Below, in pieces: positions 3,782-37,994 of a stretch of DNA of 64,000 bases (positions within the stretch are counted from its first letter, which is position 1; each line of letters begins with the position of its first letter). The translations under genes were made by a program, and so were the position numbers. This DNA comes from Myxococcota bacterium (lineage in GTDB: Bacteria; Myxococcota_A; UBA9160; UBA4427), in assembly GCA_046583095.1 (NCBI GenBank), contig JAYGDB010000143.1, forward strand, positions 2,937 through 66,936, read 5' to 3'. The notes beneath the pieces are model-generated. The model saw only the letters and a program-made list of their open reading frames with translations. It was not told the origin of the DNA and searched no databases.

Positions 3782-4855
3782 TCAGACGCGTAGACGCGCC
3801 AACGCCCAACGCGCGTGCTCCGCCAGGATGGGATCGTCGCCGTTCGCGTGCCGCTCGACGTGCGGGCGCAACGCGGGGTCCCCTGCGTTGCCCGCCGCCA
3901 CCAGCGCGTTTCGCAGCAGGCCCCGGCGCTTCGCCCGACGTAGCGGACTGCGTCGGGTGGCGTTGCGCCACGCTTGCTCGTCGAGATCCAATACCCACGC
4001 GAGCGAGGGCGGCGCCCACTCGTCGCGAGATTCGAGTCGCGCGCGCAGGCCGAGAGGATCGGGCGGCAATGACGTCGCCCGGCGCAGGTTGCGCTCGTTG
4101 AACGGACACACCTCCTGGCAGACGTCGCAGCCGAAGAGCCACGAGCCCTGGCGCTCCCGCAGCTCGTGAGGAATCGGACCCGGGTCCTCGATGGTCGTGT
4201 ACGAGAGACAGCGTGTCGCGTCCAACACATGGGGGCCGACGAAGGCGTCCGTGGGACAGGCGTCGAGACAGGCCCGGCAGCTACCGCAGTGGTCGACCTC
4301 TCGCTCGTCCGGGGTCATCGGGAGCTGGGTCAACAGCACGCCCAGGAAGAGATATGAGCCCAGGGACGGATGAATCAGCATTGTGTTCTTCCCGATCCAC
4401 CCCAGCCCGGCCTCCGCGGCAAACACGCGCTCCTGCACGGGCCCCGTGTCCACGTAGGTGCGCACCTCGAGCGCCTCACCACACCAGGCCTCCAGAGCGG
4501 ACGCGAGCGCGCGCAGCCGGTCTGCCATCACGTCGTGGTAGTCGTCGCCCTGCGCGTAACGCGCAATGCGGGCAGAAGAGTCCTCTCGCTCGGGCGAGCC
4601 GGCGACGTCGTAGACGAGTCCGACTGCAACCACGCTTCGGGCGCCGGGCAGCACGCGCCGGGGGTCTTCTCGCTCGTCGAGCCGACGCAGAACGTAGTCG
4701 AGCGGTCCGCCGGGGGGGCCCCCGAGCCCCCTGCTCGCCCACTCACGCACGAAGCGCGTCTGCTCCGTCGGCTCGGCCCGGGCCACGCCGACGAGGTCGA
4801 AGCCCACGGCTCGGGCGAGCTGCTTGGCAGCTTCGGCGTTGCGTGTCGGATTCAC
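3782..4855 (-). CDS. queG: tRNA epoxyqueuosine(34) reductase
   Basis: Two ferredoxin-type clusters (CGSCRACLDACP and CDVCQEVCPFN), the HPSLGSYLFLG motif and a HEAT-like C-terminus. Start set at GTG 4855 so that it does not overlap the divergent GH1 gene. Confidence 0.87.
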   Translation of the reverse strand: MNPTRNAEAAKQLARAVGFDLVGVARAEPTEQTRFVREWASRGLGGPPGGPLDYVLRRLDEREDPRRVLPGARSVVAVGLVYDVAGSPEREDSSARIARYAQGDDYHDVMADRLRALASALEAWCGEALEVRTYVDTGPVQERVFAAEAGLGWIGKNTMLIHPSLGSYLFLGVLLTQLPMTPDEREVDHCGSCRACLDACPTDAFVGPHVLDATRCLSYTTIEDPGPIPHELRERQGSWLFGCDVCQEVCPFNERNLRRATSLPPDPLGLRARLESRDEWAPPSLAWVLDLDEQAWRNATRRSPLRRAKRRGLLRNALVAAGNAGDPALRPHVERHANGDDPILAEHARWALARLRV

Positions 4856-4909: not shown

Positions 4910-6265
4910 ATGGCACGTCTCCGGTTTCCCGAGGGCTTCCACTGGGGAGCCGCCACGGCCTCGTACCAGATCGAAGGGGCCTGGAACGAAGACGGCAAGG
5001 GCGAGTCCATCTGGGACCGCTTCAGCCACACCGAGGGCCGCGTTCGCAACGGCGACACCGGGGATGTCGCGTGCGACTCGTATCACCGCTTCCCCGAAGA
5101 CGTCGCACTACTCGAGGAGATGAACCTCACCAGCTACCGGTTCTCGATCTCGTGGCCCCGGATCCAACCCGACGGGCGCGGCACAACGAATGCCAAGGGC
5201 CTCGACTACTACCGACAGCTGGTGGACGCGCTGCTCGCGGCCGGGATCCGCCCCTTCCCGACGCTGTATCACTGGGATCTGCCGCAGCCACTGGAAGACG
5301 CGGGCGGCTGGACATCCCGAGACACCGCTGGCCGCTTCGCGGATTACGCCGAGATCGTCACTCGCGCGCTCGGCGACCGGGTGTCCGACTGGATGATTTT
5401 CAACGAACCGAGCATCTTCCTGGCGATGGGCTACCTGGCGGGCATTCACGCGCCCGGGCGGCGCGGGCTGGACACCTGGCTCCCCGCGAGCCACATCGTG
5501 AATCTGGCCCAGGGACAAGCCTTCCAGGCCATGCGGGCCAGCGCCGGAGACGCCCGGATCGGGACGGCCCTCGCACTCGCCCCGTGCGAGCCAATGCGCG
5601 ACACCGACGCCGACCGCGACGCCGCCGAGCGCTGGCACCAACTCACGAACACCTGGTGGCTCGATCCGGCGCTCGGGCGGGGCTACCCGGCCGTCCACCC
5701 GGACGGCCTGCCGGTGCGCGCCATGGGGGTCCTTCCGGGAGATCTCGCGCTCTGCCAAGCACCGCTCGACTTCATCGGCGTGAACCTCTACATGCGGTGC
5801 GGCGTCCAAGCCTGCGAGGGCGGGCCGTTCGGTATCGATGCCTTGTCGACTGCCCCAATGGGTCTCGACCAGGGACCGCGCACCCACTGCAACTGGGAGG
5901 TCTGGCCCGACGCCCTCTACGACATGCTGATGCGTCTCACACGAGATTACGACGAACCCGAACTCGAAATCACGGAGAACGGCTGCTCGTATCCCGATGG
6001 ACCTGACGAGAACGGCGTGATCCACGACGACCGGCGGATCGAGTTCTACCAGGGCTACCTCGGGGCGGTCGCGCGGGCGATCGCTGACGGCGCCCGCGTG
6101 TCGGGCTATCACGCCTGGAGCCTGCTCGACAACTTCGAGTGGGCGGAGGGTTACGGCGAGCGATTCGGACTCGCCTGGGTGGACTTCGAAACCGGCGAGC
6201 GGACGCTCAAGGAATCCGGCCGCTTCTTCGCCGAAGTCGCCTCAGCGAACGGGTTCGAGAGCTGA
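4910..6265 (+). CDS. GH1 beta-glucosidase
   Basis: FPEGFHWGAATASYQIEG N-terminus, acid/base FNEP and nucleophile ITENG motifs. 451 aa. Confidence 0.93.
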   Translation: MARLRFPEGFHWGAATASYQIEGAWNEDGKGESIWDRFSHTEGRVRNGDTGDVACDSYHRFPEDVALLEEMNLTSYRFSISWPRIQPDGRGTTNAKGLDYYRQLVDALLAAGIRPFPTLYHWDLPQPLEDAGGWTSRDTAGRFADYAEIVTRALGDRVSDWMIFNEPSIFLAMGYLAGIHAPGRRGLDTWLPASHIVNLAQGQAFQAMRASAGDARIGTALALAPCEPMRDTDADRDAAERWHQLTNTWWLDPALGRGYPAVHPDGLPVRAMGVLPGDLALCQAPLDFIGVNLYMRCGVQACEGGPFGIDALSTAPMGLDQGPRTHCNWEVWPDALYDMLMRLTRDYDEPELEITENGCSYPDGPDENGVIHDDRRIEFYQGYLGAVARAIADGARVSGYHAWSLLDNFEWAEGYGERFGLAWVDFETGERTLKESGRFFAEVASANGFES

Positions 6266-6270
6266 CGAGA

Positions 6271-7290
6271 GTGACCGCGATTGAAGACAAGCTGCTGTTC
6301 CTGATCGGTCCACCGCGCTCGGGCTCGACCTTGCTGACGCGTATGCTCGGCAGCCACAGCGCCATCCATGCGCCCGACGAACCGCATCTCCTCACGCCCC
6401 TGGCCCACCTCGGCTACTACGCAAAGGTCGATACCGCCCCCTACGACCCGATCATCACCCGGCTCGCCATGCAGGAGCTCGTGAACGCATTGCCGGCGGG
6501 TGAGGACGACTACCTCGCCGCCATGCGCTCTCTGACCGACTCGCTCTACGAGCGCCTTCTCACCCCGAGCGGCCGCAGCATGCTGCTCGACAAGACGCCC
6601 GCTTACGCGCTGATCCTCGACTTCGCGGCGAAGCTCTATCCGAACGCACGCTACATCGTGCTGACCCGTCACCCGATGGCCGTCTGGTCTTCCTTCGTCG
6701 AATCGTTCTTCGACGGCGATCACGAGTCGGCTCACCGCCATCAGCCCCTGCTGGAGCGGTACGTCCCGGCGATCGCCCGCTTCCTTCGCGAGCGCCCGGC
6801 TCCCGTCCACCATGTCCACTACGAAGAACTGGTCCAGAGCCCCGAGGCCGAAGTGGAGAAGATCTGCAGCTTCGCGGGGCTTCCCTTCGAGCCCGACATG
6901 ATCGACTACGGGAAGCAGGGCAGCGCGCAGGAGTCGGCCCGCGGCCTCGGCGACCCGATGGCCGTGTCGAGACACAGCCGCCCCACTACGGGGTCCCTCT
7001 CGAAATGGGGCCAGCAGCTGACGGGCAAAGCCGAGATGGTCAGCCAGTGCCAGCACATCCTGGCCAACCTCCTCGACGAAGACCTCGAAAGCTGGGGCTA
7101 CGAGCGACGGGCCATCGCAGCCGAACTGGACGCGATCGACCTCGGGGAAGCCCGGCAGAAGAAGCCCTCCCTGACCCGCTACAGCCTCGAGCGCAAGGTC
7201 GCCACACGATTGCGGAAGAACATCCACCACAACGCCCTCGGACGGCTCGTGCGCAAGCTCCGCTCGGCGTGTGACGTCCTGCTCAGGTGA
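6271..7290 (+). CDS. sulfotransferase family protein (PAPS-dependent type)
   Basis: 5'-PSB-like loop IGPPRSGSTLL near the N-terminus. GTG start 5 nt after the GH1 stop. 339 aa. Confidence 0.83.
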   Translation: MTAIEDKLLFLIGPPRSGSTLLTRMLGSHSAIHAPDEPHLLTPLAHLGYYAKVDTAPYDPIITRLAMQELVNALPAGEDDYLAAMRSLTDSLYERLLTPSGRSMLLDKTPAYALILDFAAKLYPNARYIVLTRHPMAVWSSFVESFFDGDHESAHRHQPLLERYVPAIARFLRERPAPVHHVHYEELVQSPEAEVEKICSFAGLPFEPDMIDYGKQGSAQESARGLGDPMAVSRHSRPTTGSLSKWGQQLTGKAEMVSQCQHILANLLDEDLESWGYERRAIAAELDAIDLGEARQKKPSLTRYSLERKVATRLRKNIHHNALGRLVRKLRSACDVLLR

Positions 7291-7306
7291 TCCGGGACGC
7301 GCGACC

Positions 7307-7315
7307 TGCTATATC
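7307..7315 (+). promoter_or_regulatory. possible extended -10 element (TGcTATATC)
   Basis: The only A/T-rich hexamer in the 33-nt gap. It ends 8 nt before ATG 7324, and no SD is present, which would give a leaderless or near-leaderless small mRNA. Confidence 0.25.
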
Positions 7316-7323
7316 TCTGCACC

Positions 7324-7455
7324 ATGAATGAGAGCCTCCTCGGCCCTGAACTCGCGTCAGAGGACACCTACGAGCCGCCGACGGTCGAGGTCATCTCCCT
7401 CGATTGCGAAATCTCTTCGTATGCGCCGGACGAGGGTGACACTCCCCTCTTCTGA
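7324..7455 (+). CDS. unannotated 43-aa hyperacidic peptide (candidate RiPP/sulfopeptide precursor)
   Basis: Translated by hand: MNESLLGPELASEDTYEPPTVEVISLDCEISSYAPDEGDTPLF. ATG to TGA. 33 of 43 codons end in G/C. 11 acidic residues and 0 K/R/H. It fills the gap between the sulfotransferase and DUF502 genes. Confidence 0.5.
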   Translation: MNESLLGPELASEDTYEPPTVEVISLDCEISSYAPDEGDTPLF

Positions 7456-7479
7456 GCGACGCCCCCGGTCGTCGAGGCA

Positions 7480-8172
7480 ATGCTAAGACGACTCTGGAAG
7501 AGCCTGCTTCGCGTCACACGTCTCTACTTCGTGGCTGGGCTGCTGGCCTTCGCGCCGATCGGCATCACGTTCTGGGCCATCGCCTGGATCATCACACGCC
7601 TCGACAACCTGCTGCTCCCGCAGGTCATCCAGTGGATCTCGCCGGGACTCGACCAACCTCCTGATCTTCCGCCCCTGGTTGGCGCCCTCTTCACCTTTGG
7701 GGTGATCCTGCTGTCGGGTGTGATCGTCCGGCACTTCTTCGGCCAGGAGTTGGTGCGTATCTGGGAGCGGATCCTCTCCCGGGTGCCGGTGGCGCGCACG
7801 ATCTACGGCGGCATCAAGCAACTCTTCGAAGCGGCCATGCAATCCGGGACGACCAGTTACAACCGGGTGGTCCTGATCGAATATCCGAGGCGGGAGGTCT
7901 GGGTGTTGGCCTTCACCACCGGGGCCTCGCGCGGACCCGTCGCGGCGGCCCTGCCCGATCAGGCGCTGATCAACTGCTTCGTGCCCACGACGCCGAATCC
8001 GACCTCCGGCTTCTATCTCGTGATCCCCGAAGAGGACGTCATCGATGTCGACCTCAGCGTAGAGGACGCCTTCAAGGTGATCATGTCGGCGGGCCTGGTG
8101 ACTCCGGGCGCCGAGATCCCGGCCGAGGCCGTCGGGCTCGAGGGCCCGAAGCCCGAGCCGAGTCGGAGTTAG
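7480..8172 (+). CDS. DUF502 domain membrane protein
   Basis: Two N-terminal TM helices followed by a conserved GGIKQLFEA...RVVLIEYPR..VWVLAFTT region typical of DUF502. Confidence 0.78.
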   Translation: MLRRLWKSLLRVTRLYFVAGLLAFAPIGITFWAIAWIITRLDNLLLPQVIQWISPGLDQPPDLPPLVGALFTFGVILLSGVIVRHFFGQELVRIWERILSRVPVARTIYGGIKQLFEAAMQSGTTSYNRVVLIEYPRREVWVLAFTTGASRGPVAAALPDQALINCFVPTTPNPTSGFYLVIPEEDVIDVDLSVEDAFKVIMSAGLVTPGAEIPAEAVGLEGPKPEPSRS

Positions 8173-13388: not shown

Positions 13389-13539
13389 CAAGAGACCGGC
13401 AAGTCCGGCGGCTGGGCCAGTCTCTCCCCGGTGACGTCGCGAAAGCTGCGTGCGCAGAACGGCACTGTGAGCGACCTCACGCGGAATAGTTGCCGTTCCA
13501 CCACAGTCTCGGGCGCGTTTGCCGATAAGCACGAAGGCC

Positions 13540-15027
13540 ATGCAGCATCGAGACGTCCCCGCGTCGCCGCTGGACACCCAGTCGATGATGATCCCCAGCG
13601 TCAGACTGGGGGAGGACGCTGCACCCGGAACCCGTTCGACGGCAGGCCTCCCACCCGAGCTCGCGCTTCCCGAACAGGAGCCAGCCGCTCGGGGACAGCG
13701 CAACGCCGAGATCGGCGACATCCTCGAAGCCCGCTATCGCTACCGCCTCGTACAGCGTCTCGGCCACGGCGGCTTCGGCTCCGTCTTTCTCGCGGATTCT
13801 CTCGACGTGCGAGATCCAGACCAGGGCCCGCCGCCGCAGGTCGCCATCAAGGTCATCGGCTCGACCGGAAACCAGCACGCGCGCAGCTCTCTCAAGCGCG
13901 AACTCGCCGCGCTGTTGGCGATCGAGCACGACCGCATCCCCACGCTCTACGACTGGGCGCTCGACGGCGAGCGGGCCTTCGTAGCGCTGCAGTACTTCCC
14001 AGCCGGCAGCCTCGCCGACGCGCGCCCGTTCATCGGTCGCTTTGACGAGGCCCAGACATGGCGGCTGATCACCGATCTCCTGTCGGCCCTCAGCGCCGCT
14101 CACCGGGCCTCGGTCCTCCACCTCGACGTGAAGCCGTCGAACGTGCTGCTGGATGGCAACGGGGGCTTCGTCCTGACGGACTTCGGTGTCTCCCACTCAT
14201 CCCGAATGTCGAAGGGCCTGCTGCAGCAGGGACGGATCGCAGTCGGACTCGGCACTCATGGCTACCGCGCGCCCGAGCAAGATAGTTGCACGATCCAGAA
14301 CTTCGATCTGCGTACCGACCTGTGGGGCGTCGGCGCGACCGCCTGGTCCCTCTACACGGGCATTGACCTCAACAAGCGCCAGGATGTCCTGCGCCGCAAG
14401 GCGCCGGGGAACGTCTTCGGTCTGCAGGGCCTCTCGGACGTGGCCCTCCGCTGCCCGCCGCCGCTCGAAGAGGTGATCATGGATCTCCTTCACATCGATC
14501 CCGGCATGCGGCCCGGCGGCGCCTCCGAGGTGCTCACCCAGATCAAGGCAATCGCCTCGGGCTTCGGCCTCGACTCCCGCACGCTGGTGAACGCCCACCG
14601 CTCGAACATCCACCCGGACGACATCCGCCGGGTGATCGACTCCCTGGTCGATCCGCTGTGGGCATCGGTCTGCCGCGGGCCCGGTTTCGATCGCTTCTTC
14701 GTGCGCTTCGAAGATGGCGAGGTGCTCTCCGACCCGACCGACCACGCCTACCACACGCTGCTGCTCCTCTCCGGGCGCGTGCGCGTGGAGCGCCAGAATC
14801 GGCTGCTCGACATCGAGACCCGCGAGGGCAACCTGCTCGGAACCCTCTCGACCCTGACCGGCGCTCCCCGAAGCGTGACCTTGCGCGCAGAAGGCACCGT
14901 CTGGGCCTGCTTGTTCAACGAAGCCGAGCTCGAGCAACTCGTCACCTGCAATCCGTCGATCGCGGTACGCCTGATCCGCAACATGGCCGGCCGAATCGTC
15001 GACGGGCCGGTTCGACACTCCGGCTAG
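13540..15027 (+). CDS. Hanks-type Ser/Thr protein kinase fused to a C-terminal cyclic-nucleotide-binding domain
   Basis: GHGGFGSV, VAIKV, HLDVKPSNVLL (non-RD), DFG and APE motifs. C-terminal cNMP-like beta-roll with LGTLSTLTGAPRSVTLRA. Alternative start at TTG 13519. Confidence 0.87.
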   Translation: MQHRDVPASPLDTQSMMIPSVRLGEDAAPGTRSTAGLPPELALPEQEPAARGQRNAEIGDILEARYRYRLVQRLGHGGFGSVFLADSLDVRDPDQGPPPQVAIKVIGSTGNQHARSSLKRELAALLAIEHDRIPTLYDWALDGERAFVALQYFPAGSLADARPFIGRFDEAQTWRLITDLLSALSAAHRASVLHLDVKPSNVLLDGNGGFVLTDFGVSHSSRMSKGLLQQGRIAVGLGTHGYRAPEQDSCTIQNFDLRTDLWGVGATAWSLYTGIDLNKRQDVLRRKAPGNVFGLQGLSDVALRCPPPLEEVIMDLLHIDPGMRPGGASEVLTQIKAIASGFGLDSRTLVNAHRSNIHPDDIRRVIDSLVDPLWASVCRGPGFDRFFVRFEDGEVLSDPTDHAYHTLLLLSGRVRVERQNRLLDIETREGNLLGTLSTLTGAPRSVTLRAEGTVWACLFNEAELEQLVTCNPSIAVRLIRNMAGRIVDGPVRHSG

Positions 15028-15090
15028 GCGCCGGAAGCCCAGCTCGGGGCGTTGCCGCGGGCGGACCGGAGCGGTATCCCCTTCGGTCGG

Positions 15091-15570
15091 ATGATCCGTA
15101 TCTGTTTCGTCTGCCTGGGCAACATCTGCCGTTCCCCGACTGCCGAGGGCGCGATGAGGAAACTGCTCGTCGATTCCGCGCTGGCAGACCGTATCGAGGT
15201 CGACAGCGCCGGAACCGCTGCCTACCACGCCGGCGAGCCTGCGGACGAGCGAAGCGCGGCCACGGCCCTCGAGCACGGTGTCCGCCTGACGAGCATCGCC
15301 CGGCAATTCACCGTCGACGACTTCGATGACTTCGACTACGTGATCGCGCTGGACCGGGAGAACCAGCAGACCCTTCGTACCCGCGCCCCGGGGCCCGACA
15401 GCGCCGCCAAGATCACGCTCCTGCGGAGCTACGATCCAGATCGCGGCGACGAAGACGACGTCCCCGACCCCTACTACGGTGGACCACGCGGCTTCGACCG
15501 CGTCTTCGAGATCTGCGAGAGTGGCTGTGCGGGCCTGCTCGCGCACATCCGCGCCGAGCACGATCTCTAG
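15091..15570 (+). CDS. low-molecular-weight protein-tyrosine phosphatase
   Basis: P-loop CLGNICRSP (CX5R-S) and a DPYY general-acid loop. Confidence 0.9.
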   Translation: MIRICFVCLGNICRSPTAEGAMRKLLVDSALADRIEVDSAGTAAYHAGEPADERSAATALEHGVRLTSIARQFTVDDFDDFDYVIALDRENQQTLRTRAPGPDSAAKITLLRSYDPDRGDEDDVPDPYYGGPRGFDRVFEICESGCAGLLAHIRAEHDL

Positions 15571-22910: not shown

Positions 22911-23105
22911 TCAGCCCGCCCCGTCTTGCTGCTGGGCCGCGAGGCGCTTGAGCTCGCACTCCCGCTGAGCAGCCTCGTCGCAGGGACAGTCGCCGCCGGT
23001 GCCACCGCAGGAGCCCTGGAGGCGCCTGCCGTGGACCATCACGCCGATCGCCATCGCGGCCATTACGGCGATGAAGACGAGGAACGTGGCGATGAAGGTC
23101 TGCAT
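22911..23105 (-). CDS. nqrM: (Na+)-NQR maturation protein NqrM
   Basis: 64 aa with one TM helix, then GSCGG..C.C. Last gene after apbE, as in known nqr operons. Confidence 0.8.
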   Translation of the reverse strand: MQTFIATFLVFIAVMAAMAIGVMVHGRRLQGSCGGTGGDCPCDEAAQRECELKRLAAQQQDGAG

Positions 23106-24178
23106 CAGGGTCGTGTCCTGAGGACGGTGAATGCCGGGGTCTCCCGATTGCCGAAGGTACCGTCCTTCTCGCGGATGATGAAGTAGGCAGCCAGCGCGCG
23201 CTCCTCGGCGAGCGCGTAACCCGCCTCGGGGCCCAGCACGTTCAAGGCCGTCGCCCAGGCGTCGGCCCGCATGGCCTCGTCGGCAAGAACTGTCACGGAC
23301 GCAAGGGCGTGGCCAATCGGACGGCCATCACGCGGATCGATCGTGTGGGAGATCCGCAGCCCGTCCTGCTCGTAGTAGTTGCGGTAGTCCCCGGACGTCG
23401 CCATCCCCGATTCCACCAGCGGAACGACGTCGTGGACCCTCCGCTGGCCCTCGCGCTCAGGGACCTCGATGGCGACGCGCCAGGGCGATCCGTCGAGCTT
23501 TCGGCCCCGTCCGCGCAGTTCGCCCCCGATCTCGACCAGGTGCTCGGGGTAACCCAGGCGAACCAGATCTTCCGACACGGCGTCCACCCCGTAGCCCTTC
23601 GCGATGGCGGACACATCACACTCCAGCCGGGGGTCGGACTTCACGAGAGCGCCTCCCTGCAGCCGAATCCGCTGCCAGCCGACTCGCTCGCGGAGGAGCC
23701 TGAGCTCCGCCGGAGTCGGCTCCCGGGAGATCCGCGCGCCGTCACCGAACCCCCATGCCTGCACGAGCGGACGGATCGTGATATCGAAGGCGCCGCCGGA
23801 TGCCTCGCTCACCTCGAGCGAGGCGCCGACCACTTTCAAGAGTTCGCGGGAGGCCCGAAACGGCTCGGTCGAAGCGTGGCGGTTGAAACGTGAGATCTCC
23901 GAACCCGGATCCCAGTTGGACATGCCGGCGTTCACCGCAACAAGTCGCTCGCGAATCACCCGCGCGATTTCGGCGTGCTCCTCCTGGGAGAGATCTTCGG
24001 CAGCAACCTTCACGAGGAAGGTCGTTCCCATCGTCGGGCCCGAGAACTCGAAGATCGGGCCCGGCAGGTCGGCCCAGTACAGACGGTGCAGCGAGGCCGC
24101 CGTCAACACCACCACCGCGATCACGAGCAGCACCTTCGCACGCGTCGTGAGTCCGCCCTTTACGAGCGGGGATGACAT
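23105..24178 (-). CDS. apbE: FAD:protein FMN transferase
   Basis: ApbE family motifs (MGT...AIAKGY...SGDY). Positioned after nqrF. Confidence 0.92.
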   Translation of the reverse strand: MSSPLVKGGLTTRAKVLLVIAVVVLTAASLHRLYWADLPGPIFEFSGPTMGTTFLVKVAAEDLSQEEHAEIARVIRERLVAVNAGMSNWDPGSEISRFNRHASTEPFRASRELLKVVGASLEVSEASGGAFDITIRPLVQAWGFGDGARISREPTPAELRLLRERVGWQRIRLQGGALVKSDPRLECDVSAIAKGYGVDAVSEDLVRLGYPEHLVEIGGELRGRGRKLDGSPWRVAIEVPEREGQRRVHDVVPLVESGMATSGDYRNYYEQDGLRISHTIDPRDGRPIGHALASVTVLADEAMRADAWATALNVLGPEAGYALAEERALAAYFIIREKDGTFGNRETPAFTVLRTRP

Positions 24179-24191
24179 CTTCTCGCCGCGA

Positions 24192-25415
24192 TCAGCCGAA
24201 GTCGTCGAACGCGATGTTCTCCGGCTCGACTCCCAGGTCGGTCAACATCTGGATCACCGCGTTGTTCATCATCGGCGGCCCACAGATGTAGTATTCGCAG
24301 TCTTCAGGGGACTCGTGATCCTTCAGGTAGTTGTCGTGGAGCACCTGGTGGATGAACCCCGTGTAGCCGTCCCAGCCGTCTTCCTCGAGAGGCTCCGACA
24401 GAGCCAGGTGCCACTCGAAGTTCTCGTTCTCCGCAGCGATGGTGTCGAAGTGGTCGATGTAGAACGCCTCGCGGAGGCTGCGCGCGCCGTACCAGAAGCT
24501 CACCTTCCGGTTCGTGAGCAGGCGCCGGAACTGATCAAAGATGTGGGAGCGCATCGGCGCCATCCCGGCGCCTCCGCCGATGAAGACCATCTCGTTGTCG
24601 GTCGGCTTCGCGAAAAACTCTCCGTACGGACCCGAGATCACCACCTCGTCACCGGGCTTCAGACCGAAGAGGTAGGAGGTCATGATCCCCGGCGGCACGT
24701 CCGGCTGGCGCGGAGGCGGCGAGGCCACCCGGATATTCAGCAAGATGATGCCCTTCTCTTCGGGGTAGTTCGCCATCGAATAGGCGCGCTCGACGGACTC
24801 GGTGACCTTGGAGACGAATTTCCACTGGTCGAAGCGATCCCAGTCCTCCCGATACTCCTCCTCGACGTCGAAGTCCTTGTAGGCGATCTCGTGAGGCGGG
24901 CACTCGATCTGGATGTAGCCGCCCGCACGAAACGGCACCTCCTCGCCCTCGGGCAGCTCGAGCACCAGCTCCTTGATGAAAGTGGCGACGTTGTGGTTCG
25001 ACCGGACCCGGCAGGCCCACTTGCGAACGCTGAAGACCTCCGGCGGGATCTCGATCCGCATGTCCTCTTTGACCTTCACCTGGCACGAGAGGCGACAGCC
25101 CTCGCGCGCTTCGCCACGCGAGATGTGCCCGAGCTCTGTCGGCAGGATCGCGCCGCCGCCCTCGTGAACCTTGACCAGGCAGACCCCACAGGTGCCCTGC
25201 CCGCCGCAGGCGGAGGGAATGAAGATCTGGTTGTCGGCCAGGGTGCCCAGCAAGGTGCCACCGCCGTAGGCGGTCAGCGTGTGGTCGGGATCGTCGTTGA
25301 TCGCGATCTCGACGGCGCCACTCGCTACCAGGCGGCTCTTGGCGACCAGCAGGATCGCCACCAGCACGAGAATCGTCAGCGTGAAGCCGATGACACCGAA
25401 AGCCACGTCCATCAT
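24192..25415 (-). CDS. nqrF: Na+-NQR subunit F
   Basis: N-terminal TM helix, 2Fe-2S ferredoxin [17 protein letters not shown]-binding domain. 407 aa. Confidence 0.95.
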
Positions 25416-25435
25416 GGGAACTGGATCTCCACGGC

Positions 25436-26047
25436 CTAGAGCTGAATTCCGGAGAACGCCATGAACCCGACCGACATCAGCCCGACGATGATGAAGGTGG
25501 CCCCCAACCCGCGAAGCGGAGGCGGCACGTTGCTGTAGCGCAACTTCTCGCGGATCGCGGCCAGCGCGGCGATCGCGAGCGCCCAGCCGATCCCCGAGCC
25601 CAGTCCGAAGACGGTGGCCTCACCCAGGCTGTAGTCACGCTGCTGCATGAAGAGCGACGCGCCGAGGATCGCGCAATTAACGGCAATCAGCGGCAGAAAG
25701 ACACCCAGCGCGTTGTAGAGGGCCGGCGAGTAGCGATCGAGGACCATCTCGACGATCTGCACCGTGGCTGCGATGGTGCCGATCAACACGAGGTAGCCCA
25801 GGAACTCCACGTCCACGTCCGGCAGCCCGGCCCAGGCCAGGCTGCCCTCCTGCAGGAAGGTCACATTCAGAAACTGGTTGAGCGGCGTCGTGACGGCCAG
25901 CACGAAGATGACCGCGCCGCCGAGCCCGATTGCCGTCTCCACCTTCTTCGAGCATGCCAGGAAGGAGCACATGCCCAGGAAGAAGGCCAGAGCCATGTTC
26001 TCAACGAAGACCGCCTTCGTTACCAAGCTCAAGTAGTGCTCCAACAT
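25436..26047 (-). CDS. nqrE: Na+-NQR subunit E
   Basis: [27 protein letters not shown] closely parallels the Vibrio NqrE N-terminus. Confidence 0.95.
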
Positions 26048-26672
26048 GGAACTCCTCCTCCACTTGCTCGGGCTTCCAGCTGCGAACCACCCAGATGAAG
26101 CCGCCGATCAGCAAGAATGCCGCCGGGGACAAGGCCATCAGGCCGTTCGGCTGGTACCAACCCCCTTCGGTCACGGGGCTCAAGATCGTAACTCCGAAGA
26201 GCTTTCCGCTCCCGAAGAGTTCGCGCATGAAAGCCACGGCCATCAGGACGATCGCGTAGCCGAAGCCATTGCCAAGCGCATCCAACGCCGATCTCTTCAC
26301 CGAATTCTGCATCGCGAAGGCCTCGGCGCGACCCATGATGATGCAGTTCGTGATGATCAGGCCGACGAAGACCGTCAACTCCTTGCTGATGTCGAACACG
26401 TAGGCCTGCAGGATCTGGTCGGTGATGATCACGAGGGACGCGATGATCGTGAGTTGCACGATGATCCGGATGCTCGAGGGGACACGATTTCGGATCAGGC
26501 TCACGGCCACGTTCGATCCGAGCAGCACGAAGATCACCGCCAGGCTCATCACCATCGACGTCGACATCTTCGTCGTCACGGCCAGCGCGGAGCAGATCCC
26601 GAGCACCTGCAACGCAATCGGATTGTTGTTGAAGAGGGGGTCGAGAAGCGCTTCGCGATCGACTGCAGCCAT
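26001..26672 (-). CDS. nqrD: Na+-NQR subunit D
   Basis: [19 protein letters not shown]...GRAEAFA... Start ATG 26672 overlaps the nqrC stop (ATGA). The 3' end overlaps nqrE by 47 nt. Confidence 0.93.
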
Positions 26673-27451
26673 CAGGTACTTCCTCCCATTCGAGCCGCCG
26701 TGAGATACGGTCCAAACCCGTCTTCCCCCAGCCAGAAGCGCACGAGGTTGCCCACTCCCCGGCTGGTGATCGTGGCCCCGGACAGGCCGTCCACATTGTA
26801 CGGATCCGTCTCGGGCGGGCCCGCCACTCCCTTTTTCACGTTGATCAGCGGGCGACCTCGGCCGTCGTAGACCTTGCGCCCCTTCCAGAGCCTCTTCCAA
26901 CGGGGATTGTCGATCTCACCCCCGAGCCCGGGAGTCTCCTTGTGCTCGTAGAAGGTGATCCCGACGACGGTCTGGGTATCCGCAGCCAGCGCGATGTAGC
27001 CGTAGAGCGTCGACCACAGGCCCTGGCCCGAAATCGGCACGATCACGGCCTTGAACTCGCCGTCCTGCACGACGCGGTACACCATGCCGTGAGTCGGAAG
27101 CCGCCGCACCTTCGCGGCGTTCGGCGGGGCTTCGCGACTGGTCGCCGGATCCTTTGCGGCTCTGCGCTGATCGAAGTGCACGGTATCGACGCCCTCGAGG
27201 ACTGCGCCGCTCGCCAGATCCACCACCGCGGCAACGATGTTCTCGTCGAAGCGCAGCTGTGCATCTTCACGCGTGATGCTCTCCCCCTCCTCCATCAAGC
27301 CGGCCACCACGAGCACCTTCTTCTGGCGATCGAGAGCAATGTTCTCCGCCTGCCGATCCCTGAGCAGGACCGAGGCGCCGGAAACGAGGACCGAGCAGAC
27401 CGCGCAGACGGCAACCGCGAAGAGCACGATGTAGCTGGTACTATGCTGCAC
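26672..27451 (-). CDS. nqrC: Na+-NQR subunit C
   Basis: N-terminal TM helix and FMN attachment motif SGATITS. Confidence 0.93.
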
Positions 27452-28658
27452 AGCGCGCCTCTCTCCTGCGGATGTTCGACTGCACGACGAAGTGGTCGAT
27501 GAGCGGCGCGAACATGTTCATGAAGAGAATCGACAGCATCATTCCCTCAGGATAGGCCGGGTTCACGACGCGGATCAGGATGCACATCACGCCGATCCCG
27601 ATCCCGTAGCCCCACTTGCCGGGGTTCGAGAAGGCCGACGACACCGGGTCGGTTGCCATGAACACCATCCCGAACGCCCAGCCGCCCAACACGAAGTGCC
27701 AGTAGAACGGAACCGCGAAGAACGGATTCGTGTCGGAGCCCGCAAGATTCAGCAGCAAGACCATCGCGACGGTTCCCAGGGTAACCCCCGCCATGGTTCG
27801 CCACGAAGCGATGCGCGTGACGAGCAGGAACGCAGCACCGAGCAGGCACGCCAACGCCGAGGTCTCGCCCATCGAGCCCGCGATGCGCCCGAAGAACGCC
27901 TGCGACCAACTCGCGGCATCCAGTACGCCGGGCGTGACCGCAGCCTGCGCGAGCCAGGTAGCACCGGCGAACGAGTCGACGCCGCTGAAGTCGGCGGCGA
28001 TCCAGGGCGCGTCTCCGCTCATGAAGGCCGGGTAGGCGAAGAAGAGAAAGGCACGGCCGACGAGCGCGGGATTCAGGAAGTTCATCCCGGTGCCCCCGAA
28101 CACCTCTTTGCCAAAGACGATCCCGAAGACGATGCCCAGGACGACCATCCAGAGCGGAATCGTGGGCGGCAGCGTGAGGGGCAGCAGCATGCCGCTCACG
28201 AGGAAGCCCTCGTTGATCTCGTGGCCCCGGATCACGGCCGAAGTCATTTCGACGGCTCCGCCGGCCAGCATCGTCGTAATCAGGACCGGCAGGTAGTAGA
28301 GGGCGCCGTGGATGAAGCAGAGCAGCGGGTGGGTGTTCGTGAACGAGAAACCGGCCTGGGTGAGCAGCCACGTCTGCCAGGAGTCGAGCGGGACCGCGCC
28401 GCTCGCGATCGCGAACTGGGCCTGGTAGCCCGAGTTGTACATCGCCCACAGGATGCAGGGCACGAGCGCGATGACGACGCTGAACATCATCCGCTTCAGA
28501 TCCATCCCGTCGCGCACGTGGGCGGCCGTCTGCGTCACCTCCCCGGGCGTGTAGAGGATGGTGTCCTGCATCTCGTAGAGGGCGTAGAACTTCTCGAACC
28601 TCCCGCCTTCTTCGAACAGAGGCTTGAGCTTGTCGAGCGCTTCGCGGATCGGATCCAT
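27441..28658 (-). CDS. nqrB: Na+-NQR subunit B
   Basis: C-terminal 405 aa of ORF 27441-30200, starting [16 protein letters not shown]. Polytopic, with an SGAT-type FMN site region. ATGA overlap with the nqrA stop. Confidence 0.93.
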   Translation of the reverse strand: MDPIREALDKLKPLFEEGGRFEKFYALYEMQDTILYTPGEVTQTAAHVRDGMDLKRMMFSVVIALVPCILWAMYNSGYQAQFAIASGAVPLDSWQTWLLTQAGFSFTNTHPLLCFIHGALYYLPVLITTMLAGGAVEMTSAVIRGHEINEGFLVSGMLLPLTLPPTIPLWMVVLGIVFGIVFGKEVFGGTGMNFLNPALVGRAFLFFAYPAFMSGDAPWIAADFSGVDSFAGATWLAQAAVTPGVLDAASWSQAFFGRIAGSMGETSALACLLGAAFLLVTRIASWRTMAGVTLGTVAMVLLLNLAGSDTNPFFAVPFYWHFVLGGWAFGMVFMATDPVSSAFSNPGKWGYGIGIGVMCILIRVVNPAYPEGMMLSILFMNMFAPLIDHFVVQSNIRRREARCAA

Positions 28659-30040
28659 CAGCCCTCGTTTTCCAGGATCTCGAGATTCGCGCGCAGGATC
28701 GGGCCGTAGTTCGTCTTGCCCGGGCACACGAAGGTACAGAGAGCAAGGTCTTCCTCGTCGAGTTCGAGGGCCCCGAGCTTCTCGGCCTGCTCCGTGTCTG
28801 CCACGATCAGGGATCGCAGCAAGAAGGTCGGCAGGATATCGAGGGGCATGATCTCCTCGTACATGCCGATCGGCACCATCGTCCGGGGCGACCCGTTCGT
28901 CGCCGTCGAGAAGGCGAAGCGCTTGTTCGAGAAGAGCTTCGAGAGATAGATGGGGAAGACCGAGAACGCCCCGAGTCCCGGCGTGAGCCAGCCGAGCAAG
29001 GTCCGCTCCCGTCCTTCTCGCAGCACGCTCAACTGGCGGTCGTAGCGGCCGAGAAAACCGAAGACATCGCCCATCGCCTTCTTGCCGGAGAGAACCGAGC
29101 CGGCGATCAGCCGGACCTCCTCCTCGCCACTCCAGTCCTCGCCCACCACGTCCTGGGTCTCCGCGCCGCGACGGGTCCGGACGAGACGGGGATCCGAGAC
29201 GGGAGGACCCCCGACGGCCGCGATGCGCTCGACGTCGAGCTTCCCGGTGGCGAAGAGCGCACCGATCGCGATGACGTCCGGATAGCCGACGTGCCAGACG
29301 CTCTTGCCGCGACTCACCGGCTCGAGGGTGTGGATGTGGAGACCGACGGTTCCGGACGGATGAGGGCCAGCGAAGTGCTCGACCTGGACGGGCGCCGTGA
29401 GGGCCCTCTCGATCCCCGAGTCCGGGCCAACGCACAGGTAGGTGACGCCCGGCGTCAACTTCGACAGCACGTGAAGGCCGCGGTCGAAGTCCGCCTCGCG
29501 TCCGGCGAGCACGATCTCGGGCAGCGGCGCCAGCGGGTTCGTGTCCATGGCCGTCACGAACAAGGCGGCGGCCTCCGCATCGACTGCGGGCACCTTGCTG
29601 TAGGGACGGGTGCGGAGCGCCGTCCACTCGCCGGACTCGATCAGCAACGCCCGGACCTCGTCTGCGGAGAGGCTCTCGGCCGGCTTGCCCGTATAGCTCT
29701 CGAACGAGACGACCTCTGAATCCACGACCTCGCCGGAACGTTCGGCCGGCGAGAGATCGATCACGATCGATTGCAGCACGCGTCGGGCGCCGCGGTTCAC
29801 GCCGATCACTCGGCCGGCTCCGGCGGCGGTGTGCAGGACCCCGGGGTTCTTGCGGTCCTCGAAGAGCACCTGGCCGCGCTTGACGTTCTCGCCCTCCTTG
29901 ACGCGCATGCCCGGCTTCATGCCCGGGAAATCGTCGGCCATCAAGGCGATGCGCTGGGGCCGAACCTCCTCCCGCACGACCTGGATCGGCGCGCCCTCGA
30001 TCGGAAGGTCGAGTCCCTTGTGGATCTTGTGAAGAGCCAT
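28658..30040 (-). CDS. nqrA: Na+-NQR subunit A
   Basis: [19 protein letters not shown]-terminus typical of NqrA. 460 aa. Confidence 0.93.
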
Positions 30041-30328
30041 CTGAATTGTTTCTCGACTTCTCTCTTCGAGTTTGTGGTGGAGACTCTCGTCCGGACGGCC
30101 GCGCGAACTCGATTCTGTCGCACACCGGTCGCGCGCGTCGAAGCGCGTGGGGGCCCGCAGGCGGCCGCCAGAGAGTAGGCGCACCCCGGCAATCCGACAA
30201 CGCATCTCCGCAGCGAGAATCGAGATTCCGAGAGGACGCACGGGCCGTTTCAAAACTTCGTCTTGGCCGGGGTCGCGTCGAAGACGTACATTGGGAGGTG
30301 GGAGGGCAAGGAGCGGACAGGAGACAGC

Positions 30329-30787
30329 ATGACCGACCCTCACCACGTTCTGACGGCCCGTGATGTGATGACGCAGTCGCTCATCACTCTGACCCCCGAG
30401 ACCAGCATCTACGACGCCATCCGCAAGCTGGTCTCCCGGAGCATCTCGGGGGCCCCGGTGCTGGACCGCGATCGGAAGATGGTCGGGGTGCTCTCGGAGC
30501 TCGATTGCCTCGGCGTCCTCGCCTCCGATCAGTTCCACACCGAAGATCACATCGCCTCGGTCTCCGAGTACATGTCGACCGAGTTCGAGACGATCAGCCC
30601 CGACACGGACATCTACACCCTGGCGATGTACTTTCGAGACAAGCCCGTGCGCCGCTTCCCCGTGGTCGATCCGAGCGGCGAACTGGTGGGCCAGGTCAGC
30701 CGTCGAGACGTCCTCAAGGGCATCGAAGAAATCCGCAAGCAGAAGACGCAGAGAAAGCGCTACCCCGACTACCGCGAACCCACTTGA
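30329..30787 (+). CDS. CBS-pair domain protein
   Basis: Two CBS repeats (VMTQSLITL... and [12 protein letters not shown]...). ATG preceded by a purine-rich SD tract. Confidence 0.85.
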
Positions 30788-35527: not shown

Positions 35528-35645
35528 CGGCTGATCTCCTCCTTGGCTCGATGATACCCGGAGCCGAGTCCGCGGGCGGACTCCGAATGACGTAGGATTG
35601 CGTCGTCTCGGGCTTTCGAACCCGTCCCGCCGCGGAGAAGAACGC

Positions 35646-36917
35646 ATGTCGAGCCTCCCCGAGGAGATCCGGATCGACGACTTGGCCGCGCCGACCCTCT
35701 CGCCGCTGCAACAAGCCGCGCGCGACGGCGCCGAGCAGAGCCCCGTCGACCTGACGATGGATGGCATCCTCGACGCCGCCCGAGAGCAGACGGGACTCTC
35801 GGATTTCGGCCCCGACGATTTCCGCGAGCGCCTGGCGGTGTGGCTCCAGAGCTTCAACGAAGACGACAACCTCAGCGCAGTCGGCCGAGTGGGCGCGTTC
35901 CGGGACTGCCTGCGCTACGCGGTCGCACGTCTTCGTATCGAGGACTTCGTGACCCGCAATCCGGGCGTCCACGACATAGAGATCAAGCAGCCGATCATCG
36001 TCGTCGGCCTGCCGCGCTCGGGCACGACCCACCTCTTGAACCTGATTGCCGCCGACTCCCGGCTGCGCTCCATGCCCTACTGGGAAAGCCTCGAACCGGT
36101 TCCGGTGCACGGCGAGACCGCTGGCGGAGACGGCATCGACCCGCGGCTCGCCCGTTGCCGAAAGGGCTACGAGATGCAGGTGCAGCTCATGCCCCTGCTC
36201 AAGAACATGCACGACATGTCGCCCGAGCACGTGCACGAGGAGATCGAGTTGATGGGGCCGGACTTCTCGGCCTACATGATCGAGTGGGTCACCTACGTGC
36301 CGCGCTGGCGCGACTACTACCTCGCCCACGACCAGCGGCCCCACTACGCCTACATGAAGCGTGCCCTGCAAGTGCTCCAGTACCAGCGAGGGCCGGATCG
36401 CTGGATCCTGAAATCACCCCAGCACCTCGAGCAGCTCGGTCCCCTGATCGAGACCTTCCCCGACGCGACCATCGCCTTTACGCACCGTGATCCCGTGTCG
36501 GTGGTGACCTCGGCGATCACCATGCTCTCGTACGGCGATCGCATGCGGTCGCAGACGCCCGACCTGAAGCGCATCGCCGACTACTGGATCGACCGGATCG
36601 AACACCTGCTGCGGCGCTGCGTCGAAGACCGTCAGCTGATCCCGGAATCCCAGAGCATCGACGTCCTGTTTCACGAGTTCATGCGGGACGACATCGCGAT
36701 GGTCGAGCGCATCTACGACCTGGCCGAGCTTCCGATGACCGACGGCGCACGCGGCGAGCTCGACCGTTACATGGCCGGCAACCCCCGCGGTAAGCACGGG
36801 CGCATCGTCTACGACCTCGAGGGCGACTTCGGAATCGAGCCTCGAGCGCTGCGAGAACGCTTCTCCTTCTATTACGAGCGCTTTCCGGTCGAGCTGGAGA
36901 GCCGCGACTCAGCCTGA
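35646..36917 (+). CDS. sulfotransferase family protein (second copy, longer type)
   Basis: PAPS-binding loop VGLPRSGTTHLLNL. 423 aa. Confidence 0.83.
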   Translation: MSSLPEEIRIDDLAAPTLSPLQQAARDGAEQSPVDLTMDGILDAAREQTGLSDFGPDDFRERLAVWLQSFNEDDNLSAVGRVGAFRDCLRYAVARLRIEDFVTRNPGVHDIEIKQPIIVVGLPRSGTTHLLNLIAADSRLRSMPYWESLEPVPVHGETAGGDGIDPRLARCRKGYEMQVQLMPLLKNMHDMSPEHVHEEIELMGPDFSAYMIEWVTYVPRWRDYYLAHDQRPHYAYMKRALQVLQYQRGPDRWILKSPQHLEQLGPLIETFPDATIAFTHRDPVSVVTSAITMLSYGDRMRSQTPDLKRIADYWIDRIEHLLRRCVEDRQLIPESQSIDVLFHEFMRDDIAMVERIYDLAELPMTDGARGELDRYMAGNPRGKHGRIVYDLEGDFGIEPRALRERFSFYYERFPVELESRDSA

Positions 36918-36998: not shown

Positions 36999-37994
36999 AT
37001 GCGAGTCGCAGTGATTGGCGCGGGATCCTGGGGCACGACGATGGCCGCCCAGTGCGCGATCAACGGTCCCACGATCCTCTGGGCCCGGCGTCCGGAGGTC
37101 GCAAAGGAGATCTCGGAAGATCGAACCAACCGGGCTTACCTGCCCGACCTCGACCTGCCACGAGGCCTCGAGGCAACCTCCGATCTCAAGGAAGCCGCCG
37201 AGCGGGCGGATGTCCTCGTCATGGCCGTCCCTTCTCACGGCTTCCGGAAGACTCTCGAGCAGGCTGCCCCTTTCGTTCGTCCGTGGGTGCCGGTCGTCAG
37301 CCTGACGAAGGGACTCGAGCAAGGTTCGATGCTCCGAATGACCCAGATCGTCGAGGAGCTGATGCCTGGACATCCGGCGGGAGTGCTCACCGGCCCGAAT
37401 CTCGCCAAGGAGATCGTCGGCGGACAAGCCGCGGCCAGCGTGATCGGGATGCAAGACCTGGTCGTCGCGGAAGCGCTCCAGACCGTGTTCGCGGGCGGAC
37501 TCTTCCGCGTTTACACCAACCACGACGTGATTGGCTGCGAGCTCGGCGGCGCGCTCAAGAACGTCGTCGCGATCGCAACCGGCATGGCCGAGGCGCTCAT
37601 GGTCGGCGACAACACCCGGGCCATGGTGGTCACACGCGGACTCGCGGAGTTGACGAGGCTCGGCGTGGCCATGGGTGGCGAGGCCGCGACCTTCGCGGGC
37701 CTCGCCGGGATCGGCGACCTGCTCGCCACCTGCATGAGTCCCCACAGCCGCAATCGCCAGGTCGGAGAGCAGCTCGGCAGGGGACGCAAGATCGAGGAGA
37801 TCACCACCGAGATGAACATGGTCGCCGAAGGCGTGAACACCTGTGCGGTGGTGATCGAACTCGCGAGGCAATACGACCTCGAGATGCCGATTGCGGAAGA
37901 GATGCACGCGGTGATCTACCAGGGACGCAGTGCCGCAGAGGCCTACCGGGGCCTGCGGAGGCGCAAGGCCCGCCATGAACGGGACAGCGGCTGA
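36999..37994 (+). CDS. gpsA: NAD(P)H-dependent glycerol-3-phosphate dehydrogenase
   Basis: MRVAVIGAGSWGT Rossmann N-terminus, GALKNV and NMVAEG motifs. Confidence 0.93.
   Translation: MRVAVIGAGSWGTTMAAQCAINGPTILWARRPEVAKEISEDRTNRAYLPDLDLPRGLEATSDLKEAAERADVLVMAVPSHGFRKTLEQAAPFVRPWVPVVSLTKGLEQGSMLRMTQIVEELMPGHPAGVLTGPNLAKEIVGGQAAASVIGMQDLVVAEALQTVFAGGLFRVYTNHDVIGCELGGALKNVVAIATGMAEALMVGDNTRAMVVTRGLAELTRLGVAMGGEAATFAGLAGIGDLLATCMSPHSRNRQVGEQLGRGRKIEEITTEMNMVAEGVNTCAVVIELARQYDLEMPIAEEMHAVIYQGRSAAEAYRGLRRRKARHERDSG

Follow-up and report, generated by a model that had tools for sequence, protein, structure and literature searches.

We analysed a 64,000-nucleotide stretch of a Myxococcota bacterium genome (contig JAYGDB010000143.1 of assembly GCA_046583095.1, hereafter the window), in which a gene for an acidic mini-protein of 43 residues lies between the genes for a sulfotransferase (ST) and for a membrane protein of the DUF502 family. 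The initial annotation had proposed that these genes form a sulfopeptide module, in which the ST would modify tyrosines of the peptide in the manner of RaxST and RaxX of Xanthomonas. Comparison with related loci showed that the mini-protein gene is under coding selection, that it is constantly adjacent to the DUF502 gene, that the two have a conserved promoter motif in common, and that the mini-protein gene is separable from the ST gene. The description that fits the locus best is a hitherto undescribed small-protein/DUF502 unit beside a sulfotransferase of the CurM/TPST branch. We tentatively favour a reading in which the mini-protein would be a cytoplasmic partner, small subunit or ligand of DUF502, with the ST as a facultative neighbour, while the comparative data disfavour a sulfopeptide as far as sequences can tell.

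The mini-protein gene and DUF502

The 43-codon open reading frame (ORF) is a genuine, strongly constrained protein-coding gene. A sequence search with the mini-protein resulted in 30 homologous clusters, and a profile search among 1.84 billion representatives resulted in 102 representatives at E ≤ 1e-3. The family is new and, counted in clusters at 50% identity, has a size of about 100. Its members were found only in Myxococcota-type metagenome-assembled genomes (MAGs) and metagenomes, all named genome matches being Myxococcota or 'Deltaproteobacteria' MAGs. Almost all homologs are 38-80 amino acids long and carry the conserved motif at the end of the protein. When the 12 invariant codons ISLDCEISSYAP were compared between eight loci, differences occurred at 10/12 third positions but at 0/12 first and 0/12 second ones, which indicates selection on the protein and not on an RNA or DNA element. 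An RNA element in place of the ORF was ruled out by this third-position-only variation together with the lack of an Rfam match. A known peptide family was also rejected, as 31 members gave no match to Pfam, NCBIfam or the PDB at E values up to 10.

The N-terminus of the mini-protein varies across the family. It precedes an invariant block with the pattern aromatic-x2-P-x-hydrophobic-E-x-I-x-L-x-C-E-I-[ST]-[SA]-Y-A-P-D, which an acidic linker of some 2-11 residues connects to the C-terminal PLF tip. Some 16 positions are invariant, including C28, E29, Tyr33, A34, P35, D36 and the PLF tip. The mini-protein of the window contains 11 Asp/Glu and no basic residue. Its acidic tail with a C-terminal Phe is reminiscent of SSB-type acidic tails.

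A promoter motif is conserved ahead of the gene. It is an extended -10 element (TGCTAtA, of the form TG-n-TATAnn), new like the family itself, that ends about 8 nt 5' of the ATG of the peptide, the rest of the intergenic DNA being unconserved. In the window the TG occupies 7307-7308 and TATATC 7310-7315, with the ATG starting at 7324, so that the motif lies inside the 33-nt gap after the ST gene. An in-frame TGnTA at 8 +/- 2 nt before the start was present in 35 of 39 non-redundant peptide loci, compared with 31 of 3000 random 200-nt stretches (~1%), and the motif occurs in peptide loci both with and without ST. Seven loci devoid of the peptide (L024, L046, L055, L063, L068, L080 and L084) also carry it, at -18 or -19 relative to the ATG of DUF502, which places the promoter with the DUF502 unit and makes the peptide its optional first cistron. 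The standard spacing between -10 element and start predicts a leaderless or near-leaderless peptide mRNA, and this would explain why a search for a Shine-Dalgarno sequence upstream of the mini-protein gene found none; DUF502 has its own GAGG Shine-Dalgarno sequence. A scan with the generic sigma-70 consensus gave no promoter because it requires a -35 element, and the extended -10 element emerged from the comparison between loci.

The mini-protein gene lies directly 5' of DUF502 on the same strand in all of the 48 peptide-bearing loci, with a spacing typically of 5-239 nt, and its own 5' neighbour varies, being ST, GH1 or another gene. Scanning metagenomes with DUF502 as the anchor brought 80 more loci into the comparison, and the presence or absence of ST and peptide was counted in the 57 DUF502-anchored loci with at least 1450 nt upstream. 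Both genes were present in 21 of them and neither in 17; 11 had the peptide only and 8 the ST only. No ST was found within 4-10 kb in the peptide-only loci (11 of the 32 peptide-bearing ones), and the ST-only loci (8 of the 29 ST-bearing ones) had a clean ST-DUF502 gap of 23-281 nt containing neither the peptide nor a remnant of it. Relocation of either gene within the loci without it was not detected within 4-10 kb. Peptide-anchored look-ups gave the order GH1-peptide-DUF502 without ST (L001-L003), five GTDB genomes (L004-L008) have ST-peptide-DUF502, and ST-anchored look-ups gave both ST-peptide-DUF502 (L009/L010) and ST-DUF502 with no space for a peptide (L011-L013). In one long-read MAG (L005:8882-9907), counted as ST-present, the ST gene is broken into four frame-shifted tblastn segments, which reflect either sequencing indels or a decaying gene.

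The four states are interspersed on the DUF502 neighbour-joining tree. Fitch parsimony on 51 non-redundant tips required 12 changes in ST, 8 in the peptide and, when the two were combined into one character, 17, and therefore most gains or losses of ST and peptide fall on different branches. The tree contains at least eight losses of ST only and at least four of the peptide only. A lineage-specific insertion of ST was ruled out, since the gene is also present in more distant relatives and repeated loss accounts better for the distribution. ST and peptide are evolutionarily separable. Profiling of the triad, which the initial annotation had suggested as a check, gives a divided picture. The ST-peptide-DUF502 order does recur over a Myxococcota clade so deep that DUF502 identity falls to ~57%, but the ST and the peptide are also found apart in 11 + 8 of the 57 loci. 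The peptide is thus not reliably conserved beside the ST, about one third of the peptide loci being without ST and about one quarter of the ST loci without peptide. Profiling of the genes within 6 kb of DUF502 in ~90 loci identified no gene that tracks the peptide beyond phylogenetic signal; the clustering of neighbour genes was noisy because of shadow ORFs in the high-GC DNA.

DUF502 proteins are widespread membrane proteins of bacteria, archaea and plants, and no bacterial function is given for them in the literature consulted. The protein of the window matches the full Pfam model (1-107) with 107 bits, against a cut-off of 23.8. Its AlphaFold2 (AF2) model (pLDDT 79) has two long helices that span the membrane, one amphipathic helix and, at the C-terminal end, a small beta-barrel. 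According to hydropathy and the positive-inside rule, its N-terminus and beta-barrel would face the cytoplasm, and this, together with a mini-protein that has no signal peptide, supports a cytoplasmic pairing of the two. A Foldseek search of the PDB with DUF502 gave nothing below E 0.05, the best hits (E 0.05-1) being Tudor, PWWP and chromo-barrel-like domains.

In the reading that we tentatively favour, the mini-protein and DUF502 genes would form a unit of two, with the mini-protein as first cistron, transcribed from its own extended -10 promoter into a leaderless mRNA. Its invariant 21-residue block and the flexible acidic tail ending in Pro-Leu-Phe may dock on the cytoplasmic face of DUF502, where the amphipathic helix and the small beta-barrel would provide the docking surface. 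The ST, as a PAPS (3'-phosphoadenosine 5'-phosphosulfate) enzyme of the CurM/TPST branch, may act on another acceptor or optionally sulfate Tyr33, and neither the peptide nor DUF502 would require it. Very short proteins co-encoded with membrane proteins in one transcription unit are known, such as KdpF and AcrZ. These are hydrophobic single-transmembrane peptides, whereas the mini-protein is soluble and strongly acidic, with a free C-terminal Phe tip. A co-transcribed mini-protein partner would provide a concrete handle on the function of DUF502. A ribosome-arrest or regulatory leader peptide of DUF502 would hold its conserved residues equally far from the stop codon or the peptidyl-transferase centre in all members, and was ruled out because the YAPD-PLF linker ranges over ~2-11 residues and the gap to DUF502 over 5-239 nt.

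Several points weigh against a partnership with DUF502. The contact between the two proteins is itself putative. The family is found in one syntenic clade, and the constant adjacency could therefore be partly inherited. About 25 of the 57 DUF502 loci are without peptide, so DUF502 does not need it, and a peptide-binding role of the beta-barrel is a conjecture in view of its lack of a significant structural match (best E 0.05). Finally, no single state is commoner than the triad with ST (18 of the 51 non-redundant tips), which is probably also the ancestral one, and this would allow for a functional link with ST.

It is also conceivable, although in our view unlikely, that ST, mini-protein and DUF502 are functionally independent and lie side by side only because one clade has inherited the synteny. 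In that case the mini-protein would have a cytoplasmic role of its own, for example as a competitor or adaptor acting via its acidic tail and C-terminal Phe. The wider neighbourhood is indeed syntenic too (LptD, AhpC, DCD, GDPD, QueG, GH1 ... CvpA, OpuA, ChaC, GreA), and independence would agree with the occurrence of all four presence/absence states and with the failure of any neighbour gene to track the peptide beyond phylogeny. However, the peptide-DUF502 adjacency is the only one that is never broken while both flanks vary, and one conserved promoter is common to the two genes.

The sulfotransferase and the tyrosines

The ST scored 125 bits against PF13469 (cut-off 27) and contains the PAPS 5'-phosphosulfate loop as GPPRSGST (residues 13-20), aligned to PRSGST of CurM. 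In NCBIfam it gave only a sub-threshold match, to NoeE. We identified 3574 homologs, of which the top 120 are full-length orthologs at least 62% identical to it. Its nearest solved relatives by sequence in the PDB are the ST domains of CurM (6e-21) and of the olefin synthase OLS (3e-17), with ~25% identity, followed by the TPSTs, from 6e-7 for TPST1 to 5e-4. In the AF2 model (pLDDT 78) the flap 215-241 is disordered, and the C-terminal ~90 residues form an all-helical addition to the Sulfotransfer_3 core. Foldseek with this model gave the same ranking as the sequence (CurM 1.9e-8, TPST1 8e-8), and the TM scores were higher for TPST-peptide complexes (0.54/0.65 over ~300 columns) than for the CurM ST (0.42/0.49).

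The CurM and OLS domains (PDB 4gbm, 4gox) have the PRSGST loop, a P-[ED]-x-H-L-L motif and a G-D-P flap motif in common with the ST. They sulfate beta-hydroxyacyl-acyl carrier protein (ACP) inside polyketide synthase (PKS) modules, whereas the ST of the window stands alone, carries the additional helical region and has no PKS or ACP gene nearby. TPST1/2 (PDB 5wrj, 3ap1) belong to the same fold branch and have as acceptor a Tyr in an acidic peptide, but they are only 17-19% identical to the ST. They also reside in the Golgi lumen and act on secreted proteins, whereas the ST and the mini-protein appear to be cytoplasmic. Since CurM and OLS are closest and the TPSTs come next, the family placement is undecisive, and on these comparisons a peptide acceptor appears neither supported nor excluded.

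A second Sulfotransfer_3 gene (Pfam 4.1e-38) is located at 35598-36917 (+) and followed by gpsA (36999-37994) and a gene of the nitronate monooxygenase family. It is only remotely related to the ST encoded from 6271 (BLASTP E 0.012), and its presence means that the genome carries several PAPS-type sulfotransferases. The PAPS genes cysDNC were not found in the window, 64 kb being too small to be informative on this point.

Both tyrosine contexts on which the sulfopeptide proposal was based, SEDTYEPP and EISSYAPDEGD, are present in the window, but the first is not conserved. Position 16 is Y, W or F, the residues ahead of it vary freely and the acidic upstream context is not conserved, so that Tyr16 is not a conserved sulfation site. 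Tyr33 is near-invariant within the acidic, Pro-containing context S/A-Y-A-P-D-(D/E/G)n. In all family members it is preceded by S/T and then S/A, with no Asp at -1. An Asp at -1 of the Tyr is typical of RaxX and of plant sulfopeptides. The peptide cores, Tyr33 included, are indistinguishable between loci with and without ST.

Neither a signal peptide nor a double-glycine (GG) leader was found in the mini-protein, nor any GG motif, and there is no protease gene near the peptide in the window or the related loci. As the initial annotation had noted, a peptidase-ABC exporter is missing. No peptidase-ABC or membrane fusion protein genes occur within 10 kb in the window or the related loci, the only ABC genes at that distance being those of an OpuA-type importer.

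Sulfated peptides of bacteria that are made by ribosomes and modified after translation (RiPPs) are known from RaxX/RaxST and from the SslST lanthipeptides (PMC6637879, PMC11143521). RaxX of Xanthomonas is secreted and sulfated at an Asp-Tyr (D-Y) site, its double-glycine leader being cut by the peptidase-ABC exporter RaxB (PMC6637879, PMC11143521). The present locus resembles this system in that a TPST-like PAPS enzyme is encoded beside a short precursor with a conserved Tyr near Pro and acidic residues, here with the ST gene 33 nt 5' of the peptide, although the CurM and OLS STs are closer relatives of the enzyme. This part of the proposed RaxX/RaxST-like module is retained. Three of the four testable features that define RaxX-RaxSTAB failed: the locus has neither a GG leader and matching exporter nor a D-Y site, the Asp at -1 being absent, and enzyme and substrate do not consistently co-occur, the ST and the peptide being found apart. 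The peptide also has its promoter in common with DUF502. SslST, a stand-alone sulfotransferase, modifies a single Tyr of a ribosomal peptide without depending on the leader, and it requires a thioether ring made by LanM (PMC11143521). At the locus studied here there is no lanthipeptide synthetase or other RiPP class-defining enzyme within 6-10 kb.

A sulfopeptide may be envisaged in a facultative form, in which the ST with PAPS would O-sulfate Tyr33, DUF502 would handle or export the product, and some lineages would have lost the ST or the peptide. The precedents of sulfated bacterial RiPPs, the frequency and probable ancestry of the triad, the short ST-peptide gaps (16-92 nt in most loci), the relationship of the ST to TPSTs in sequence and fold, with its higher TM scores for TPST-peptide complexes, and the near-invariance of Tyr33 in its context all speak for it. 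We nevertheless consider it improbable. Loci with only one of the two genes are frequent, independent losses of each are spread over the DUF502 tree, and Tyr33 with the whole core is equally conserved where the ST is missing. Moreover, Tyr16 is variable, Tyr33 has no Asp at -1, and a signal peptide, a double-glycine leader, a peptidase-ABC exporter and a protease are all missing. The peptide has its own promoter, common to DUF502 and not to the ST, and the ST is closest to the CurM/OLS enzymes, whose GDP flap motif it carries. Were Tyr33 shown to be sulfated, bacteria would have a third kind of sulfated ribosomal peptide, and this one would be the first to lack a dedicated exporter. Tight spacing beside a tailoring enzyme was insufficient here to infer an enzyme-substrate pair, and presence/absence mapping together with promoter conservation pointed to another partner than the ST.

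Likeness of the core to PqqA

A likeness between the core of the mini-protein and PqqA was noticed post hoc. In an ungapped profile-profile comparison of 148 unique mini-protein cores with seven authentic PqqA sequences the score was 26.4, compared with a mean of -3.1 (standard deviation 4.1, maximum 17.6) for column shuffles, none of 5000 reaching it in either direction. The register pairs the aromatic residue with W, P with P, the hydrophobic residue with F, E with E, I with [IV], [ST] with T and Y with Y. The core spacing aromatic-x2-P-x9-E-x3-Y (Y/W16-x2-P19 ... E29-x3-Y33) agrees with the cross-link motif of PqqA. With hhalign the same register was obtained at P = 0.058 and a probability of 0.9%. 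The two have in common the aromatic-x2-Pro element, alternating hydrophobic residues and the E-[IV]-[ST]-x-Y spacing, and both are short with an invariant core. They differ in the invariant Cys, the Y-A-P-D, the acidic linker and the C-terminal PLF, which are additional in the mini-protein, and in the invariant D, R and G of PqqA, which are absent from it. The likeness is a post-hoc lead and does not amount to family membership.

A precursor of the PqqA type would have its core processed by a Glu-Tyr (or Cys-involving) cross-linking enzyme encoded elsewhere, for instance a radical-SAM/SPASM protein with a PqqD-type chaperone, giving a cofactor-like or signalling product for which sulfation would be optional tailoring. 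Besides the alignment score and the identical register in hhalign, the combination of an invariant core with a variable N-terminus, as in cofactor-type RiPPs, is compatible with such a precursor. We nonetheless regard it as very unlikely, given the weak hhalign values and the post-hoc nature of the observation. The PqqA (PF08042 / TIGR02107) and mycofactocin models were not matched by 31 members even at E values up to 10. Neither the 64-kb window nor the 6 kb around DUF502 in ~90 loci contains an ORF with the radical-SAM motif CxxxCxxC, and by Pfam annotation the window contains no pqqB-E genes, adjacent or otherwise. A local radical-SAM or RiPP recognition element (RRE) maturase was rejected on this lack of a CxxxCxxC ORF in the window and the ~90 loci, on the beta-barrel nature of the DUF502 C-terminal domain and on the all-helical nature of the ST extension. 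The DUF502 C-terminal domain was in particular rejected as an RRE, being a small beta-barrel and not a winged helix, with no significant PDB neighbour.

In a broader form of this idea, which we judge quite unlikely, the mini-protein would be a precursor from which remotely encoded enzymes mature a new ribosomal product, its Glu/Tyr (plus Cys) core being PqqA-like; the ST would optionally O-sulfate it at Tyr33, and it would be handed to DUF502. It would give DUF502 its first role, as a peptide-handling membrane protein. Many family members (e.g. L030, L032, L043 and P0151) read I-C-L-A-C-E or L-C-C-E and thus have a second Cys, at position 25/27, beside the invariant Cys28. The resulting CxxC or CC suggests that the core may have a redox or metal chemistry.

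Layout of the locus and other features of the window

The features of the locus are listed in Table 1. After rechecking of the coordinates, the four genes described as co-directional and tightly spaced were confirmed to lie all on the + strand, separated by 5, 33 and 24 nt, and Pfam upheld each of the domain calls for GH1, ST and DUF502. The start of GH1 was fixed from the length of its homologs and from MARLRFPEGF. GH1 is a facultative neighbour, present or absent in related loci independently of ST and peptide, and is only 5-8 nt from ST where it is present. This spacing and the promoter common to peptide and DUF502 make [GH1-ST] followed by [peptide-DUF502] the likely organisation.

Table 1. 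Genes and sequence features at the mini-protein locus (positions in the window).
Feature	Position	Strand	Characteristics
GH1 beta-glucosidase-family gene	4910..6265	+	451 aa, TGA stop; Pfam Glyco_hydro_1 1.9e-142
PAPS-type sulfotransferase (ST) gene	6271..7290	+	339 aa, GTG start; Pfam PF13469 Sulfotransfer_3 6.7e-36
Extended -10-like promoter motif	7307..7315	+	TG-C-TATATC; 8 nt 5' of the peptide ATG
Mini-protein gene	7324..7455	+	43 aa, acidic; family undescribed; MNESLLGPELASEDTYEPPTVEVISLDCEISSYAPDEGDTPLF
Mini-protein core block Y16-D36	7369..7431	+	From alignments; third-position-only variation
Mini-protein C-terminal tip Pro-Leu-Phe-COOH	7444..7452	+	From alignments; invariant
DUF502 membrane-protein gene	7480..8172	+	230 aa; Pfam PF04367 4.5e-31

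Some related loci and database entries showed further variants of the mini-protein gene. In one locus (L085, ~1245-1330) a TGCTATA motif 5' of DUF502 is followed by an 18-codon ORF, MNVLHRHTAGESEEQPLL, which keeps the N-terminus and a PLL tip, the entire conserved core being gone. It has the appearance of a mini-protein gene reduced by an internal deletion to a remnant. In a few database proteins (P0158, P0245, P0211 and P0168) the motif is fused to unrelated N-termini, which comprise an S21 ribosomal-protein-like sequence (joined at YEKPT), an MnmA-like sequence (joined at GFEVI), a helix-turn-helix-like domain and a deacetylase-like fragment. These could be chimeras of assembly or gene calling at short shared words, or real fusions.

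An exosortase gene, EpsH, lies between QueG and the GH1/PilZ genes in L003, L011 and L012 and is not present in the window; no PEP-CTERM-like sorting signal was found in the mini-protein. L003 also contains a long homopolymer run (~3990-4497; a poly-Pro translation, poly-C or masked) between GH1 and the peptide gene, probably an artefact of assembly or scaffolding. In the window, a Na+-translocating NADH:quinone reductase operon with an ApbE flavin transferase is located at 23105-30550 (-) and comprises NqrA, Rnf-Nqr membrane subunits, an FMN-binding subunit and an NqrF-like protein. The stretch 13519-15570 (+) encodes a Ser/Thr protein kinase with a fused cyclic-nucleotide-binding domain, followed by a low-molecular-weight phosphotyrosine phosphatase, and this kinase is syntenic in related loci.

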